IMG/VR virus record: IMGVR_UViG_3300018914_000069
Span: 1-58,466 of that record
DNA length: 58,466 nt
Strand: one strand, 5' to 3'
Source: a virus
Taxonomy: Duplodnaviria > Caudoviricetes
In this document: in pieces, positions 9,339-58,466 of the stretch
Layout of the letters: each line of letters begins with the position of its first letter
Numbering within the stretch: the first letter of the stretch is position 1
Made by a program: the position numbers and the translations under genes
The notes under the pieces: generated by a model
What the model was told of the DNA's origin: nothing
The model's input: only the letters and a program-made list of their open reading frames with translations
The model's database searches: none

Positions 9339-12300
9339 TTAATATTTATTAGATTTAATGAGTATATTAAGTCCCTGTAGCCACTGTGCAGGATTATCAG
9401 ATTTCACTGTCATGTTGTTAAAGTGAAAATGATTTTCTGTCACCATTGAAGGGTTAGACATTGGTGTGGTCAGTGCCGCCGCCATATTGCGCAAATTGGG
9501 GAGTAGATTGCTTTGAATATTTTTTGGAGGTATTTGCAGTTCCCCAATGAGCGATTTTGTTAAAGATTCGTGTGGTTTTACATTGAAGAGACGATTGGCA
9601 AGTTGAACGAGTTTATTCGGTGCTTTGTCACCAACAATTCCGCCATCATGATACTTTTTCACTGTAGTAGACCCGCCAGTAGGTGAATGTGTTACGGACG
9701 GTAGGGGAGTGCTCGATCCAGATGGTGGCTTTAAGCTGGCTATAGACCGATATAATGATTTTAAACGCTCAAATTGATCTTCAACCTCATCAGTATAGTT
9801 TTCTAAGTGATTTATTGCTTTAGAATACCAACCCTTTTCACCATGCATGAGTTCATCGAAAGCAAGCGTTCCTTCCTCAGCAGCTTCAATTAAACCTTCC
9901 CAACGCTTTTGCGCTTCTTTAATTTCCTCTTCATGCTTCAACTTAAGATGTTCAAGTTCTTCTTGAAGGAATTCAATCTTTTTATTTTTTGCTTCTTCAA
10001 GTCGTGTAATCTCATCTTCAATTGCTCGTTTAACATCTTCACGCTGATATTGTCTGAGAAGTTCTTCACGTTCCTGTTCAAGTTCTGATACACGTTCTTT
10101 ATCATACGTGTTAATTAATGTTCCATCTTCTTGAACAAAGTCGTGGTCGTTGACACCTTTAATTTTGTTAATCTGGTCGTCAATTTCTTTTAATTTAAGG
10201 AGTCGATCTTCCTTTTCATACTCTTCATCCAGCAATTCCAATTTCTCGCGTTGTTTTTCAATTTGTTTATCATAGTCTTCATTAAGGTCTTCAATTCTTT
10301 TTTCAAGTTTTGAAACAGCTTTTTCATGTTTCTCTTGCAATGCCGCAAGGTGATTTTGCTTTTGTTGCTCAAGTATGTCTTTAATCATACCTTGAATAGA
10401 GCGTCTGGTTTGCTCAATGGAAACCTTATAATCAAGTTGCTGTTTAGTAAGGTCAGCTAATTTTTGACGCAATTCACCTTTTTGAGCTAATGTAAGATTG
10501 CCAAGTTGAAGCTGTTTGTTCACAAGATTGATTTCATCTTGAATGTTCTGCTGGAGAACGTCCATCACTTCGATTTGGAACTGAAGTTCCTCTGTATACT
10601 CTTGAGAAGACTCTCTAAACAAATTCATCCGAGTGCGAGAGAGGTCAAGATGATTACTCAGTTCAGCAGATTTTACAGCATACTCCTCGAACTGTGAATT
10701 AACTTGATCGAAAGAGAGGCTAGAAATTTGTGATTGCAATTGAATAATTTGCTGTTTGAGTTCGTTTGCTCTCTTAAAAGCTTCATCAGAGTCTTTAGGT
10801 GAGCCACCAATTTTGTTTGACTTACCGCCAATGCGCTGAGTCTTTGTGACTTGATCGTATTCCTTCTGGAGAAGAGTGATTTTCTCTTGTAAAAGCTTTT
10901 TCTCTTTTTCAATGTTGTCGCGGTATTCTTGAGAAGCGGAGGAGAGTTGGGCACGTCTAGCTTGTACTTCTTCGAGCTGTGTTTCGATTTCGAGAAGTCG
11001 TTTAGCTGAAGAAGAGAGGGCTTCATACTCGGTTTTGGGAGATTTTGTGCTAGAAGGAGTTTTTGATTTCCCAAAAGTAGGGGAGGAGATAGCCTTCTTT
11101 AAAGCCTCGATCTGCTCAAATTCTGATTTTACACCTTCAACTTGACGTTTGGTCTTTTCTATCTCCATTGCCTCTGTAATGCTTCTGGATTCCCTAATTC
11201 GGGAATCGAGTCCAGAGAGTGCATTTTGCGCATCTGCAACAGATTGGATTGCTTTAATCTCAATACCATAATTATTTAACTTTTTAATTAAATTGGCTTG
11301 TTGATTTGCCAAATCTTGTGCTCGTGCATTGGCAATATCACTAAAAGCCTTAAGTTTACTGTTTCTTAGTTCAAGGATTGCTTGTTGATTTATTTTAACT
11401 TGACCATTTTCAAACGTGAACGCATTGGCGAGTTCTTTTTCCTTAAGAATTAGCTCTGCGGCTTCATCTGCCGTGATTGATTTCCCTTCAGCTAGGTCAT
11501 CTAGTACTTGATTTAAAGATAAAACTTCTTTCTTAGTTGAGTCAAATTGTTTAAATAACTCATCTTGGGTGTTGTTGACTTCTTCTAGGGAGTCAGAAAA
11601 TTCTTCGGTGTCAATTATTCCATTTTTAAAGGTATTATTTAAATCATCTTGGGACTTCTTAACCTTATCGTTTCCGAAGATAATTTTATCAAGTGTAGTT
11701 ATTTGATCATTATTGGCCTTCTTTTTATCTTCTAAGGTTTGAAGTGATTTTTGTGCCTCTAAGAATTCGGTGTCACCTATATCACTTAATTGTTCTTCGT
11801 AAGCTTGCAATTCCTTTACAAAGCTTAGTAATTCTCCACGTTTTTGAGCGTATAGGTCAGCGTTACCTGATTTTTGAATTACTTCAATTTCTTCTTGTTT
11901 TGCGTCGACGATTGCACGAGCATCTTCAATGGCTTTAACTTTATATTTGTTTTGAAATGCTAGTATTTGCTCGTATGTACTTTGATGTTCATCTTGTATT
12001 TTCTTTAAATCATCAGCAGCTTCCGTTATGTCTAAATCTAGCTTTGCATTTTGTGCTTCCAAGGTCGCTTTTGCTAATTTTGCTTGTTCAATAGACATTG
12101 TTTTTAGTGATTCAGCGTAAGCATTTGCTTTTTGAGTATTTATCTCAATTGCATTGCCATATTCATCAGTCGATTGAACTAAAGCTGGCTGTATCCTCTG
12201 AATATCAGACATGACTTGCTGCAATTCTTTTTGTGCATCAGTATTAACAGAGGCTTGAGATTTTAATTCTTCATACTTCTGTACTAAATTTTGTAAATCA

Positions 12301-31952: not shown

Positions 31953-32150
31953 TTATTCCTGATCATCAGCCAAAAACTCGGAGTCATCGGCTTCAATGGA
32001 AATTGAAAATTTTACTTTATATCCATCATATTTACCAAGAACTTTACGCAAATCGAAGACATTAATTGCTTCTTTAGTTTCTTCCGTGATTTTCACCATA
32101 TCCAACTCAAGATTACCTGTAACACTGAAACTCGAATTAAATTTAGCCAC
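31953..32150 (-). CDS. yonK: YonK-family small protein
   Basis: RBS GGGAGG before GTG at 32150; AKFNSSFSVTGNL...ITEETKE...FDL. Confidence 0.7.
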   Translation of the reverse strand: MAKFNSSFSVTGNLELDMVKITEETKEAINVFDLRKVLGKYDGYKVKFSISIEADDSEFLADDQE

Positions 32151-32196
32151 TTCAAAATTCCTCCCTAATTTTGAATGAAATTGTCTTTTTATGTAT

Positions 32197-33408
32197 TTAC
32201 ATCTGATCAGCAATATCAGCAATTCTAGATCTGTAAATGGTGGAGAATGTCATCTCTCCATATACGTCAGTGCCACGGAAAATTTTGCTCATACGCTTAA
32301 TTCCATTGTTACGCCCTGCAAATGCACTATTATCAACCTGTGCTTTGTCGTCACCGTCAATAATAATTTTACTTCCCTTGCCAATACGCTGCAAACCCAG
32401 CTTCATTAAATCTACAGACAGGTTTTGCGCCTCTGTAATCCAAACAATGGAATCGTCACCTGTATCATAGCCGCGAATATCCACAAACGGAATTAATACA
32501 ATTTCACCGACAGCAATCATGGCCTCAACTTTATTCCTGTCGCCAATTTTGCTTGTTAAGATATTACCAATACCACTTTGCATCAACTTTTCATCTTTGA
32601 ACCCTTTATAAAATCCAATTTCCTGAGCGTTCTTAACAGGGTAAGGATTTACCAAACACACTAAACGACTAGCTTTACCTTTTTCTAGTTGATGTAATGC
32701 ATAATTCAGTGCAACAAGACTTTTCCCTGAGCCTGCTTTCCCACGTAACAAGGTGATATCATTCGTCAGTAAGCTATCTATAGCAGCCTTTTGATACAGA
32801 TCCATCGGCTTAAACTTTCCTAACAAGTGAGTGGAGAGATTCTTCTCTGTGCATTTAACATGAGAGCGTCCATCCCACTTAACCACATCAAAATAATTAC
32901 CATTTTCATCCTTTAAAAATAGATATTGGTTTTGTAATAGGTTGTAAGTATTTTCAGCTAGATTCTCATAAAAGTATGCTAATTGCTCATCATCCACAGT
33001 TACTTCTGTGTAGCCTGAATAATCATCTTCAGTGTTCTCATCTAAATCAATAACTTCAATTTCAAGACCTCTTGCTTTTTGGCGCAATAAGAGATCATTG
33101 GTCATCAACGCATAGCCATTATCATAACAGGCTTGTAGAATGTTATTATCTTGATATGTACTATCAAAAAAGCTATTCAGTGACCATTTATAGTCCCGTA
33201 AATCAAAGTAAAACCTATCCTTATTGTTTTCAATAAAGCGAGTCGCTTGTCTTGCACGATAGGCTAAATCTTGATTATGACTAAGCTTATGTTTTTCTAA
33301 TTCGCGCAAAGTGTGTGATAGGAGAGTGGGGATGCCTTGAATACTTATTGACTCCAAGCCTTCTAGGAGTAAATTTGTATCGATTACAACGTATTTTTTC
33401 ATAGGCAT
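32197..33408 (-). CDS. phoH: PhoH-family PIN-ATPase (PhoH2-like)
   Basis: PIN domain VIDTN...ELEKHK...TNDLLLR; Walker A GKAGSGKS; RGYD, EAQN, GDDKAQVD; likely start at 33408 or 33402 rather than 33546. Confidence 0.9.
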   Translation of the reverse strand: MPMKKYVVIDTNLLLEGLESISIQGIPTLLSHTLRELEKHKLSHNQDLAYRARQATRFIENNKDRFYFDLRDYKWSLNSFFDSTYQDNNILQACYDNGYALMTNDLLLRQKARGLEIEVIDLDENTEDDYSGYTEVTVDDEQLAYFYENLAENTYNLLQNQYLFLKDENGNYFDVVKWDGRSHVKCTEKNLSTHLLGKFKPMDLYQKAAIDSLLTNDITLLRGKAGSGKSLVALNYALHQLEKGKASRLVCLVNPYPVKNAQEIGFYKGFKDEKLMQSGIGNILTSKIGDRNKVEAMIAVGEIVLIPFVDIRGYDTGDDSIVWITEAQNLSVDLMKLGLQRIGKGSKIIIDGDDKAQVDNSAFAGRNNGIKRMSKIFRGTDVYGEMTFSTIYRSRIADIADQM

Positions 33409-33419
33409 TTTTACCTTTC

Positions 33420-33690
33420 TAGGTAGATTTAAAAGAGGGGAGAGGTGAGTAAGTTCACCAATCCCCCTAAGACTATAACCGTAGCGCACCCATATGCCTA
33501 CGTGATCGTGTCCATGACTAGATGGACGAGATATTATAAACGACAAGGTGGGGCGGCGTATCCCACATCTCTTTTAACCATCTACGATCAATGATATTTC
33601 CTCGTAATGGTGCGATAGTAACCTTTCTATCCTCTTGTCGTTTACTTCACTTTCACAAACTGCTCATGAGAGCATTCACATTCATCTATA
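33420..33690 (-). ncRNA. Candidate structured RNA in the HU-phoH intergenic region
   Basis: 11-bp stem 33537-33547/33634-33644 enclosing three hairpins, plus further hairpins. Confidence 0.45.
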
Positions 33691-33691
33691 G

Positions 33692-33970
33692 TTAGCAACA
33701 ATTAATCTGTCCTTTTAATGCTTTAGCTGGTTTCCACGATGGTACCTTTGATGCAGCAATTTCGATCTCTTCACCAGTTTGCGGGTTGCGACCTTTGCGA
33801 GCCGCGCGTTCGCGAACTTCGAAGTTTCCGAAGCCAATCAGTTGCACTTTTTCGCCGTTCTTCAGCGCCTCAGCAATTGCATCAAGAACTGCATCAACAG
33901 CTTTGGCGGCATCTTTCTTTGTCACTTCTGTAGTTTCTGCTACTTTAGCAATTAGTTCTGTTTTGTTCAT
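33692..33970 (-). CDS. hup: HU DNA-binding protein (YonN/HBsu-like)
   Basis: MNKTELI...[26 protein letters not shown] signature. Confidence 0.97.
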
Positions 33971-34184: not shown

Positions 34185-34859
34185 TTACAGCGTTTGTCTA
34201 TTTTTCTTCCAATTATTCTTTTTCCATTGATTTTTTTGTGCCTGTGCTATTTTTTTCGCGCAACTATCGCAATACTTCTTTTTATTTCCTGTGGTTTCAA
34301 TCCTTATCCCGCAAGCAGCACATTGAATCCTCTTTCCAATTTCACGCTCAACATTCTTCCTTAAATTTTCAATGATGATATCGCCAAAACATTCCCATAG
34401 AGTAACCTTATAATCTGTTTTTCTATATCTGTATAAATACTCGATAAGAACGTCAGAAACATAGTGTACATCAGAGTTTAGAGCCAATAATTTTTCTCTT
34501 ATATCTTTGTAATTCAATAAGAAATCATCATTCCAGCCTGCATTTTTATGTATCATCATTCTACTCTTTAAGTCTAATTCATTATAAAGATCAACAATAC
34601 CTTGATCCAATTCAATATCTGAATTACTCATCAGCATTTTGTAATTAAATTTTCCAAGTCCACTGGAAGTAAATTGAGTTTTAAGATTAGGCACAATCCT
34701 TTCTAACCTGTTAACAACACTGTTATTGATGGGTTCAACCTCATGTTTCTTTTTGTCTTTTGCATAGATGAAAAAGTGGGGGACTTTGGACTTGGTGTAT
34801 TTAGTAATCTGTTTACCGATTTCTTTTGGTCTTTTCACTTTATACAAGGTTTTAGCATA
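34185..34859 (-). CDS. yonO: YonO-type RNA polymerase, exon 2
   Basis: Begins TAT GCT AAA ACC (YAKT) in frame with ORF 34185..34847; KVPHFFIYAK, SVVNRL and a C-terminal CxxC...CxxC. Confidence 0.88.
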   Translation of the reverse strand, partial: YAKTLYKVKRPKEIGKQITKYTKSKVPHFFIYAKDKKKHEVEPINNSVVNRLERIVPNLKTQFTSSGLGKFNYKMLMSNSDIELDQGIVDLYNELDLKSRMMIHKNAGWNDDFLLNYKDIREKLLALNSDVHYVSDVLIEYLYRYRKTDYKVTLWECFGDIIIENLRKNVEREIGKRIQCAACGIRIETTGNKKKYCDSCAKKIAQAQKNQWKKNNWKKNRQTL

Positions 34860-35184
34860 CCTGAATACCCTCGGTTTCCCGATATTTAAATAGGGGAGTA
34901 GACCATATCATCAACTATTAGGGGAAATAGTTGGTCAGCGCTTCGCAATACAGGATTTCACTGTAAAGCTACTTCCATTAGGAATGGTCGTTGCACCTTC
35001 AAGGATACAATGATCCGAGCTTGGCACAGGATTATCATATCGACTTTTGACTTAGACTTCCCCTGTTAGCACTATCATTAACAAGCCATTTCCTGCTTGA
35101 AGCTAATCGCTGATAGCACACCCTAGATTTCTAGGTTCACTGACTTTTCATTCGCACATCGCTGCGCGAAGCGACTATAATTTA
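34860..35184 (-). ncRNA. Group I self-splicing intron (325 nt, ORF-less)
   Basis: 5' splice site after GAU with U.G wobble (CGAU/GUCG), terminal omega G at 34860, P AACAGGGGA, Q AAUCCUGUG, P7 GACCA/UGGUC (R GCAACGACCAU, S GAUAUGGUCUA), P10 UAUG/UAUA. Confidence 0.9.
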
Positions 35185-37128
35185 ATCGATCACGTAGTTA
35201 TTTTCCATACATAACCACTTAATTACGTCCAAATTCACGTTCCCACTGTTCCAAATCTTAGTGATGTTATTGGAGATAATACCAATGTTACCCCCTGTGT
35301 AGGCAGCTTTAAGACCTTGATAAATTGCCTGATTGCTTATAATGTCTTTACCCGCAGTTGCCATATTGTAATACAATGGCACAATATCTGTCATGTTTCT
35401 TTCTGCAACTTTTATGATAGTGGGATCTGCACAAACAAGACTTTTATCTCCATCGTTGTCGAACATGAGGATTTTGCTTATTGGATCATGTACACTGGTG
35501 TACAGTCCGTTTGTAATGAACCATCTGCCTTTTTCTTTATCCACTACATTTGTCCTTACCGCATGCTCCAAGTAAAGGTGAGGACTCCGTAAACAGTCCA
35601 ATTTTGGCATGTTCTTATAAAGTCTACATGATACCTCTCCGTTTGCCAAAAGACCGCTAGGTTGCTTTTCACCGAGTATCAACCACTGGCAGAAGGCGTA
35701 AAGATCAGGACATATAAAAGTGTACTTTCCTTCAACGTCAATCTTTCCTGCTCTTGCTTCCTTAACCATGCTCCTTTTGACATTTTTCAATATTTCCTTG
35801 CTATATGTATCGCTTAGTAACTCAGGATATATCTCCAATGCTTGTTGAAGATAGTTCTTATACTTATTCGACTCAACTACACCAAGAACTTTTAGCATTG
35901 TTTTTTTGTCTTTACCGATATTCATAATACTTGAGATGGTGCTTTTACAAATTTCACTTATCTCATCATCAGTCATATCGGTTAAAGTTTGTAACATCTG
36001 ATAATTTAACTTAGCATTGGCAGGTAGATCTTCTTCCTCATTACATTTTCCTGCTTGGCAATTATATTTCTTGAACTTTTCTTTATAGGCATCCCAATCA
36101 GAGTAGTACTTCCACATTTTAAATTGACTCTTGGTGAGAATGATTTCGATTCCATCCTTCAATAAATCATGCTGCTTTCCATAAATGTCAGTGACAATAC
36201 CGCATTTTATATCACTGTTTCTATTATGCTCTCGGATGAACTTATCAAAGGGGAAGGGGACAAGTAACCCTTTAATCCAAGGTAGCCTAATCATCATGCT
36301 TTTCTTTGATTTTCTAGGGAGAATCATCCCGCACCCGTCAGTGTGATTAATAAGAATGTCCATTTCCTTACGAGTTATTTCGTAATTCTTTTCGTCAATG
36401 AAATCAACAACGCTGCGTACTGTAGTCTCCATATCATCAACTACAATGACTTTATCAATGTCAAAATCTGTCCACGGATCAGTTGCAGAGTTGCACAAGG
36501 CGAGATAGGCAAGGTATTTATTAATATTAACCCCACCTTGCTTGTTGATGTCATCCACTGACAATCCGCAAGTTAAAGAATTTTGATGTTTGTTCAGTAC
36601 ACTTTCTTTAATAAAAACGGTTTTCTTAGTACGAATTTGCCCTGCACTTGCCGTAAAACAAACGTACTTTTCACCTTTGAACATGAATCCGTTAAGAATA
36701 ATGTCTTCAAGAATATTAAAGAAATAAGTTTGAACTACAATGAGGTCTTCAGAGAAAGTATCTTGTTTAATTCCCAGAGTTCTTGTCAATACAGAATCAA
36801 ATACAGATATCACATGCTTTTTTCCTATTTTCGATTCATTTAGTGTTCTAATCTCAGTATTGTTTGCAAATTCAGCGTACAGTAAATCCTTTAGTTTCTT
36901 GATACGTTTATTAATGCTTGTAAAGTGTCTTTCTAGCTTAAGTCCGAAGGCAGCCGATATGTTCTTTTTATTGCGTAATTTTTTTACATGGTTTTTAAAC
37001 CTATAAGCCTTATTCAATTTATTATGTATCTTGTTTTCTTTTTCATTGTAAAAGAAGCTGGTGTCTACACTATAAATATGTACTTGTTTATCCAAACTAA
37101 TTACGATTCCCTCCGTCTCCATCTTCAA
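35185..37128 (-). CDS. yonO: YonO-type single-subunit DNA-dependent RNA polymerase, exon 1
   Basis: TASAGQIR, HTDGCG, RLPWIKG, LNYQMLQTL, RSPH, catalytic FDNDGD, GNIG; splices to give about 872 aa. Confidence 0.92.
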
Positions 37129-55413: not shown

Positions 55414-55487
55414 GGATCTGTAGCTCAAAGGATGAGCAGGCGGCTCATAACCGCTAGGTCTTGGTTCGATTCCAAGCAGATCCACCA
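55414..55487 (+). tRNA. tRNA with CAT anticodon, most like tRNA-Ile2 (lysidine type, reads AUA)
   Basis: Acceptor GGATCTG/CAGATCC, anticodon arm GGCGG-CTCATAA-CCGCT, T-loop TTCGATT, encoded CCA. Confidence 0.9.
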
Positions 55488-55488
55488 T

Positions 55489-55564
55489 GCGCCTGTAGCT
55501 CAGCGGATAGAGCAATCGCCTTCTAAGCGATGTGTCAGGGGTTCAAATCCCTTCAGGCGCACCA
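55489..55564 (+). tRNA. tRNA-Arg(TCT)
   Basis: Acceptor GCGCCTG/CAGGCGC, anticodon loop CTTCTAA, T-loop TTCAAAT, encoded CCA. Confidence 0.95.
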
Positions 55565-57380: not shown

Positions 57381-58466
57381 ATGAATCCTAACGTTGAGGG
57401 CACTGGCGCTCTGCAAGAAGATAGCAAAATTGCGTTTCTGAAGACACTCCAGCAAGTCCAAATTAAGGATTTTGGGATTAGCAGGCTTAAGCAGGAAATC
57501 AGCGTGAAAGAGTTTATCCGCATGCAAGACAAGTTCCTGTTCGATGATCCTGTACAGCGGAATGCAAACGCATGGAACGATGAGAAGAAATCACTGTTGA
57601 TCCACTCCATCATTATGGGTATCCCTGTTCCAAACTTCTTTGTGCAGATGGTTGACGGCAAATACAATGTGATTGATGGAAAGCAGCGTTTAACAACTCT
57701 TCTACAGTTTCTGGATGATCAGTTCATACTACACAGAGATACACCACCCGTTCCCATTACTGATGAAAACGGCGTGAATCATGAATACCCAATAGCAAAC
57801 ACACTTTTCAATGCGTTACCTGAAGAATTCAAAGATCGCATTCACGCTAATACTCTGGTGCTTGAAGTATTGGGCATGACTGATGAAATTAAAAACCTTG
57901 TGTTTGCTCGTCTCAATCAGACTGAGCCATTGAAGCCAACTGAGAAACTTCGTTCCGTCATGACTACAGAATTAATTCATTTTGTAGCACAAATGGCGAG
58001 AAGCGAATTTATTCAGGCGGTCAACATGTCTGCAAGCACACGCAATCGCTTAGGGGATCAGGAGCTAGTACTTCAATCCATGTTGTTTATTGCTAAGAAC
58101 GGAGAGACTGGAATTGGTTCTGACGATGTGAAGAAGTGGGTTTCGGAAGGTGTAACAGAAGATGTGCTGGACGCATACAAGTATGCCATTCATTATCTAG
58201 ATGAAGTAGCGCAGCACTTGGAAGGAAAGAAAGTCAAGAAGCAATTGAAAAAGAATCACATCCCAATGCTGACATTGATTGCACTGAACGCTAAAGACGT
58301 TACTGCCGAACAGTTTGCAGAATGGATGGAGTCTTTCCTAGTGGAACGGTACGACAAACTGAACTATAAAGACTACGCTCGACTTGGTTCAGCTAAGAAA
58401 GAAAATGCATCTACTCGGTATAGAATTATGCAGAGAGACTTCAACAAAACATTTAACCTGTCATAA
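57381..58466 (+). CDS. DUF262 (ParB-like/GmrS) domain protein
   Basis: VQRN..AW...KKSLLIHSII.G.PVP, VIDGKQRLTT, F.RLN. Confidence 0.85.
   Translation: MNPNVEGTGALQEDSKIAFLKTLQQVQIKDFGISRLKQEISVKEFIRMQDKFLFDDPVQRNANAWNDEKKSLLIHSIIMGIPVPNFFVQMVDGKYNVIDGKQRLTTLLQFLDDQFILHRDTPPVPITDENGVNHEYPIANTLFNALPEEFKDRIHANTLVLEVLGMTDEIKNLVFARLNQTEPLKPTEKLRSVMTTELIHFVAQMARSEFIQAVNMSASTRNRLGDQELVLQSMLFIAKNGETGIGSDDVKKWVSEGVTEDVLDAYKYAIHYLDEVAQHLEGKKVKKQLKKNHIPMLTLIALNAKDVTAEQFAEWMESFLVERYDKLNYKDYARLGSAKKENASTRYRIMQRDFNKTFNLS

Follow-up and report, generated by a model that had tools for sequence, protein, structure and literature searches.

Why the gene for a YonO-type phage RNA polymerase should be divided into two open reading frames by a stretch of 325 nt, and whether this stretch is removed from the transcript, times the synthesis of the polymerase or marks its decay, is the question raised by the locus described here. 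The window, i.e. the whole stretch of 58,466 nt that was analysed, comes from an IMG/VR record that represents a metagenome-derived provirus fragment with an estimated completeness of 44%. To our knowledge, no single-chain relative of the cellular multi-subunit RNA polymerases has been characterised other than YonO, the enzyme that drives late transcription in SPbeta-like phages. The late genes of SPbeta are transcribed by YonO, and the role of the DxDGD triad of this enzyme has been established (PMC5467207).

Two exons of a YonO-type polymerase gene

The list of open reading frames contains a frame of 648 aa (37128..35182) and a TTG-start frame of 220 aa (34847..34185), both on the minus strand. 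Exon 1 ends with GAA AAT AAC TAC GTG ATC GAT, the last codon of which ends at 35185, and is directly followed by TAA (35184-35182). Because the intron begins with this TAA, the frame stops at once in unspliced RNA. At the other end, the sequence reads TTCAGG/TAT GCT AAA ACC with exon 2 starting at 34859, and excision of 35184..34860 in silico results in a single frame of 872 aa with the junction MENNYVID/YAKTLYKV. The preliminary description had placed the feature at 34860-35184 (325 nt) with the junction ENNYVID/YAKTLYK and a stop in the first intron codon; all of this proved exact in the sequence, the feature lying on the minus strand. The alignment to intron-less yonO alleles that it had put forward as a check was carried out as well and found the motif contiguous in homologues: the joined-exon junction aligned without gaps to YonO of SPbeta (ENNFTIDFAKTLF, MENNFTIDFAKTLF) and to the homologue of the intron-less Clostridium phage D-1873 (ENNFTIDFAKTLYK, MENNFTIDFAKTLYK).

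Both exons belong to the same protein family, the two-barrel, RdRP-related single-subunit RNA polymerases of the YonO type. Exon 1 matched the Pfam family RdRP (PF05183) with 53.1 bits (cut-off 23.8) and covered positions 2-644 of the 847 positions of PHROG 8308 (E 1.7e-269), which exon 2 continued at positions 645-844 (E 2.4e-37). The metal-binding triad DNDGD is found at residues 557-561 of the polymerase and lines up with DNDGD of SPbeta YonO. A sequence search of the PDB with exon 1 gave no match. In named genomes, the closest relatives of the polymerase were found in Brevibacillus gelatini (76%) and in Paenibacillus species.

On the 3' side of the polymerase gene, genes for HU, a PhoH/PIN protein, a YonK-domain protein, Clp protease, the large terminase subunit and the tape-measure protein follow on the same strand, and genes for an integrase and a RecD2-type helicase are located upstream on the opposite strand. 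This neighbourhood matches the SPbeta layout, in which yonN (HU) and yonK precede the late structural genes, when compared to the maps of SPbeta and phi3T. In a promoter scan, 13 sites were found as compared to a mean of 17.1 in shuffled sequences, indicating no enrichment, and a promoter-like site at 37649-37621 (minus strand) can be regarded only as a hint, as such sites were not enriched over shuffles. The coordinates of all features are collected in Table 1.

Table 1. Positions of the exons, the intron with its structural elements and two neighbouring genes in the window, and of related introns that split the catalytic triad of YonO-like genes in other contigs.
Feature	Position	Strand	Remarks
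YonO-like RNA polymerase, exon 1	35185..37128	-	648 aa, listed from TTG (putative start codon); Pfam, PHROG and triad
Polymerase, exon 2 (conserved C-terminal part)	34185..34859	-	224 aa plus stop; PHROG 8308; gapless alignment
Candidate ORF-less group I intron	34860..35184	-	325 nt; first codon TAA, last base G
P1	35172..35188	-	exon C-G-A-U (35188-35185) with guide G-U-C-G (35175-35172); U.G is 35185/35175
P2 hairpin	35151..35170	-	compensatory changes among window, B. subtilis-type introns and L021
P3	35144-35138 with 34940-34934	-	97.1% paired, 5 pairs changed on both sides
Extra hairpin labelled P3.1	35135-35122	-	enclosed by P3; 91.7% paired
Extra hairpin labelled P3.2	35117-35071	-	enclosed by P3; 93.1% paired
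P4-P5-P6/P6a	35066-34995	-	P4, P6 and P6a 100% paired
P7 pseudoknot helix	34989-34985 with 34905-34901	-	100% paired, 2 covarying pairs; aligned to Rfam core consensus
P7.1	34984-34973	-	69.6% paired, compensatory changes
P7.2	34969-34945	-	85% paired, compensatory changes
P8	34933-34912	-	enclosed by P7
P9 (CCC/GGG) and inner GAAA-capped hairpin	34868..34896	-	both helices 100% paired, compensatory changes
HU gene	33692-33970	-	downstream of polymerase
YonK-domain gene	31953-32222	-	downstream of polymerase
Intron splitting D/FDGD	L126 1685-1998		excision restores triad
Intron splitting D/FDGD	L116 6545-6852		excision restores triad
Intron splitting D/FDGD	L108 2127-2410		excision restores triad
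Intron splitting DFD/GD	L168 6828-7164		excision restores triad

Rfam match and sequence hallmarks of the insert

The Rfam model RF00028 aligned over its full length (model positions 1-253) to 34878..35194 on the minus strand, with 47.3 bits (E 8.8e-11) when 851 nt were searched and with 43.4 bits (E 2.1e-11) in a search of the whole record. The gathering cut-off of this model is 50 bits, a database convention and no biochemical criterion, and the window intron with its 47.3 bits goes unreported in a default scan. A relative of the type found in B. subtilis phages (L071, 4845-5167) reached 38.3 bits when searched alone. In a 65-kb scan of nine loci, seven of them intron-bearing, RF00028 gave no match at E ≤ 0.001, which we attribute to the filters and low scores, since L071 alone yields the score just given. 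Routine annotation with the general Rfam model is likely to miss members of this intron family, and as the model at its cut-off misses both of these introns, similar ones are probably under-counted in phage genomes.

The hallmarks of group I introns that the preliminary description had pointed out are present, namely P1 with the U.G pair at the 5' splice site, P7, the P4/P7 core sequences and the terminal G (34860). The P10 that it also listed fared less well: the sequence of the window copy allows a helix of 4 bp to be drawn, yet the relatives do not retain it, which makes it a weak element. P1 itself has undergone a compensatory change in L042, where the exon has ATTGAT in place of ATCGAT and the guide has GTCAC in place of GTCGC. 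Within 34860-35184, the list of open reading frames holds no frame of 40 aa or more, so that the insert does not encode a homing endonuclease.

Fold and covariation

A fold was worked out from the window copy together with the family alignment and was tested on a MAFFT alignment of 20 related introns. Relatives had been gathered by a scan for a conserved 3' motif, which was found in at least 111 viral contigs, and a subsequent profile search of those contigs. Over the 20 introns, 88.6% of the cells of the fold held standard pairs, as compared to 35.2-41.5% when the 3' partners were slid by 1-3 columns, a control that favours the fold since the window sequence, on which the latter is based, is itself among those aligned. 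Changes on both sides were observed in 58 of the 81 pairs, and none of 500 shuffles matched any of the five observed measures. Given the size of this compensatory signal, a chance origin of the fold is untenable. The segment containing P9 is the most conserved stretch of the intron family, and it is its motif that recurs in the viral contigs mentioned above. Pairing was weaker in distant relatives for P7.1 and towards the outside of P1, P2 and P8, which is partly explained by the fact that the alignment ignores structure.

P7 is the guanosine-binding helix of group I introns. Introns of subgroup IA, as defined by Michel and Westhof, have two additional helices, P7.1 and P7.2, which separate the 5' strand of P7 from the 3' strand of P3. 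Because the window intron has both helices in exactly this place, it is of the IA type by this definition. The surroundings of P3 are unusual, with two covarying hairpins (35071-35135, minus strand) between its 5' strand and J3/4, which are flanked by invariant GUGAAC, GGUGU and GCUAAC. We know of no such placement of hairpins in textbook IA introns, including the diagrams of the T4 td and Twort introns, and our search of the literature on extra hairpins of the P3.1/P3.2 type found nothing relevant. One reading is that P3 constitutes one helix interrupted by a two-hairpin insertion. An alternative P3, in which UAGUGC next to J3/4 pairs with the 3' strand of P3, was set aside as the main pairing because the hairpin that uses the UAGUGC strand covaries (93.1%) and because the alternative pairs poorly in the copies of the B. 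subtilis type. An extension of P3 by 3 bp formed with UGC is possible; UGC is invariant and hence carries no covariation signal.

Alleles with and without the intron

Relatives of exon 1 are encoded at 80 loci in viral contigs, 64 of which are contiguous, while 15 carry an insert at the exact codon boundary and one has no match to exon 2. At the site used in the window, the inserts measure 325-331, 358-367, 400, 1154 or about 1290 (1289-1296) nt. The three viral loci nearest to the window polymerase (75% identity) are all intron-less. In a set of genomes restricted to one per species, an insert at the window's site was present at 4 of the 73 loci (L219, L220, L222 and L269), and all four inserts matched the intron profile. 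Two of these, L220 (titled Streptomyces sp.) and L269 (Paenibacillus sp.), contain a yonO intron like those of B. subtilis phages, and both introns score 258.4 against the profile; the contig names suggest one strain series, and assembly contamination or a shared prophage may account for the finding.

Among cultured phages, the 400-nt form occurs in phi3T, SPR and SPbetaL3, the form of about 1290 nt in Goe11, Goe14, SPbetaL4-L7 and BUCT083, and SPbeta, Goe12, Goe13 and D-1873 are intron-less. The longest form codes for a protein of 300 aa with GIY-YIG, NUMOD3 and helix-turn-helix domains, and in the 1154-nt form (L042) the GIY-YIG reading frame is broken in two. By reading of the alignment, the endonuclease gene is placed in the loop of P5, which measures 13 nt in the window. 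The window intron shares 76% identity with the ORF-less copies of the B. subtilis type. Such a mixture of copies that bear an endonuclease ORF, copies in which it decays and copies devoid of it is what is classically seen in a family of homing introns. The window copy, which has lost or never had a gene for a homing endonuclease, would accordingly be classed as a member of a mobile family that is presumably unable to move on its own.

In the SPbeta-like phages of B. subtilis (phi3T, SPR, Goe11, Goe14, SPbetaL3-L7 and BUCT083), the yonO inserts have the same insertion point after ID, the same TAA at their start, the same guide and the same fold as the window intron, and over the ribozyme parts they are 76-83% identical to it. 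They differ in being 330-331, 400 or about 1290 nt long, in the GIY-YIG, NUMOD3 and helix-turn-helix reading frame of the long form, and in residing in polymerase genes whose products are only 56-59% identical to that of the window. The records of these phages annotate two hypothetical proteins or yonO_1/yonO_2 and no intron, indicating that the yonO annotation is systematically wrong in many SPbeta-like phages, including phi3T and Goe11.

Related introns at other sites and in other genes

More distant YonO-like genes, whose products share 20-31% identity with the window protein, contain related introns that split the catalytic DxDGD triad itself (Table 1). In the genome set, inserts of 842-1019 nt were found near residue 557, i.e. 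at the triad, in L222, L250, L261 and L268. L261 has a further insert near residue 210, and in Neobacillus paridis (L222) the triad and the window's site are both occupied. All of these inserts match the intron profile in two halves arranged around a central insert. In other viral contigs, members of the family split genes for DNA polymerase III alpha (L119, 8817-9135, and L172, 1656-1981), and a LAGLIDADG domain was matched by the frame that precedes the intron in L172.

These distributions allow the speculation that YonO-type genes are a recurrent battleground of one homing intron family, with at least three sites (between ID and (F/Y)AKT, DxDGD, and near residue 210), and that ORF-less copies might persist because, with the target site destroyed, the late polymerase gene would be safe from the GIY-YIG endonucleases that co-infecting SPbeta-like phages encode. 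We hold this scenario to be tentative and rather doubtful as a whole. If it were true, the results of mixed infections and of prophage hybrid formation would be skewed according to whether the intron is present, as has been shown for PhiPA3 versus PhiKZ.

Nature of the insert and proposed mechanism

Because the exact in-frame junction, the Rfam match, the covariation and the occurrence of alleles with and without the intron at the same site all support it, we consider it very probable that the insert is a genuine ORF-less group I intron in the gene of a YonO-type phage RNA polymerase, with splicing as its expected activity. The preliminary description had come to the same assignment. Early transcription of the polymerase gene, for which the host polymerase is the probable enzyme, would then produce a pre-mRNA that folds into the ribozyme formed by P1-P9. 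External guanosine is predicted to attack after the U of the U.G pair (35185), after which the terminal G (34860) would take the place of the guanosine and the exons would be ligated. Spliced mRNA would direct the synthesis of the 872-aa polymerase, in which exon 2 is presumably needed for function, and unspliced RNA would yield only the fragment of 648 aa that ends at the intron's TAA. By analogy with SPbeta YonO, the polymerase would transcribe the late structural operon that is located downstream on the same strand. Copies with a GIY-YIG gene could spread the family among YonO genes, and the copy in the window would be a passive, ORF-less passenger.

The preliminary description had proposed that late transcription depends on guanosine-dependent splicing, which could act as a checkpoint; in such a scheme, splicing efficiency, set by the level of guanosine or GTP or by translation, would gate the late polymerase and time late transcription. 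The first half of the proposal stands insofar as the anatomy of the gene, with TAA as the first intron codon, implies that full-length polymerase is obtainable only from spliced RNA, and it is in line with a regulatory role that the polymerase gene heads the late module and that the intron is nearly unchanged in a diverged relative (see below). The guanosine-dependent checkpoint found no support, and we regard it as very unlikely. The closest relatives, the 64 contiguous viral loci and SPbeta manage without the intron, endonuclease-bearing copies occupy the same site, and related introns reside in genes as unrelated as that for DNA polymerase III alpha. Because of these endonuclease-bearing copies, unrelated host genes and intron-less relatives, the insert is better understood as a selfish mobile element than as a conserved regulator. 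Its sporadic distribution likewise fits an ordinary selfish mobile intron, and it is no surprise, biologically, to find such a selfish element in an essential and conserved gene of a phage.

Independent copies and the integrity of the intron

A contig from a sequencing run of a different study (X4), about 93% identical to the window, covers 34738-35787 with no gap and has the intron at the same site. Five of the listed differences between this contig and the window are located in the 325-nt intron and 35 in the 456 listed exon nucleotides, a contrast that rests on the assumption that the 25 differences outside the list lie beyond 35518, the 40 listed ones being given in positional order up to that position. 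The intron is much more tightly kept than the flanking coding sequence, which argues against a decaying relic and could be due to strong constraint on the structure or to a lateral spread in recent times.

This comparison bears on the view that the intron no longer splices, in which case a defective provirus would carry a pseudogene here, or the polymerase would be assembled from two polypeptides. The incomplete provirus record, the absence of an endonuclease gene and an Rfam score under the cut-off are compatible with such a state, and translation of the 220-aa frame from its TTG might conceivably supply the C-terminal part as a polypeptide of its own. All core helices are intact in the window copy, though, both exons have open frames with strong family matches, and decay would not give fewer differences in the intron than in the exons between two environmental copies. 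A dead relic or a split gene is thus highly improbable. Still further down in probability, and practically negligible, is an assembly artefact or a chimeric insertion, conceivable in any record that comes from a metagenome, in view of the independent gapless contig described above, of two runs that hold the whole stretch in single contigs (although these may be the record's own source) and of homologous inserts at the same codon in cultured phages. A joint across the intron, which would indicate an intron-less variant, was not found in four DNA runs, the holes in the cover of one of them (X3) being uninformative. A look for sequencing runs containing the stretch brought up no RNA run.

Relation to known phage introns

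Group IA introns are known from bnrdE and bnrdF of SPbeta, from the thymidylate synthase gene of beta22, from the DNA polymerase gene of SPO1, from the phages Twort and K, and from td and nrdB of T4. The 3' domain of the window intron is widely shared, with partial matches in 234 phage records, mostly of Staphylococcus, Enterococcus, Listeria and Bacillus phages. The introns of Firmicute phages and T4 resemble that of the window in having the same IA core with P7.1 and P7.2, in their sporadic distribution and in their location in conserved coding sequence. They differ in their host genes, and the window intron additionally has the two covarying hairpins enclosed by P3.

Phage RNA polymerase genes have been reported to harbour introns before. 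The jumbo phage PhiPA3 has a group I intron with the HNH endonuclease gp210 in the gene for an RNA polymerase beta subunit (PMC11620839), AR9/PBS1 have introns in the virion RNA polymerase genes (PMC12350094), and in 201phi2-1 an intron is present in the phage RNA polymerase gene gp273/274 (PMC2919709). In all three cases, as presumably in the window, an essential phage RNA polymerase gene harbours a self-splicing intron at a highly conserved site, and the intron of PhiPA3 adjoins conserved aspartates, as do the introns at the DxDGD site of the distant YonO-like genes. The polymerases concerned are multi-subunit enzymes of lytic jumbo phages, whereas the window encodes a single-chain enzyme of the YonO type in a temperate SPbeta-like phage, and the endonuclease of PhiPA3 belongs to the HNH type, whereas the window copy has none and its relatives have GIY-YIG enzymes.

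The rarity that the preliminary description had ascribed to an intron in a YonO gene was overstated, considering that introns are known in other phage RNA polymerase genes and that the split is visible in public records (yonO_1/yonO_2 in Goe11, phi3T_60/phi3T_59 in phi3T). No description of the yonO intron was found in the literature covered, which included the available parts of PMC5467207, PMC8270828, PMC2919709, PMC7824862, PMC2504315 and 10.1101/2021.11.22.469490, with subscription journals and supplements outside this scope. The present analysis adds that several sites of YonO genes, the catalytic triad among them, are targets of the intron family, and that the Rfam cut-off misses the family. 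With its intron-bearing and intron-less phages, B. subtilis offers a tractable system for the study of intron homing and of endonuclease-mediated competition between temperate phages.

Other elements of the window and of related contigs

Several further elements were noticed. A skipping-rope RNA (RF02924) was detected at 33540-33641 on the minus strand with 70.6 bits (cut-off 36.7), between the HU and PhoH/PIN genes at the head of the late module. In phi3T (L001, 6471-6536), a different motif, the DUF3800-VIII RNA, is located upstream of yonK (44.7 bits). It may be common for late operons transcribed by YonO to begin with a structured RNA. Two adjacent tRNA genes are present at 55414-55561 on the plus strand (66.0 and 71.1 bits). 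An open reading frame at 57381-58466 (plus strand), which runs off the end of the window, matches the N-terminal domain of the GmrSD restriction endonuclease with 60.3 bits and may be a defence gene of the provirus or of the host flank. In L168, a tRNA array located a few kb 3' of the intron-split YonO-like gene encloses a ROOL RNA (10269-11841, 303.8 bits).
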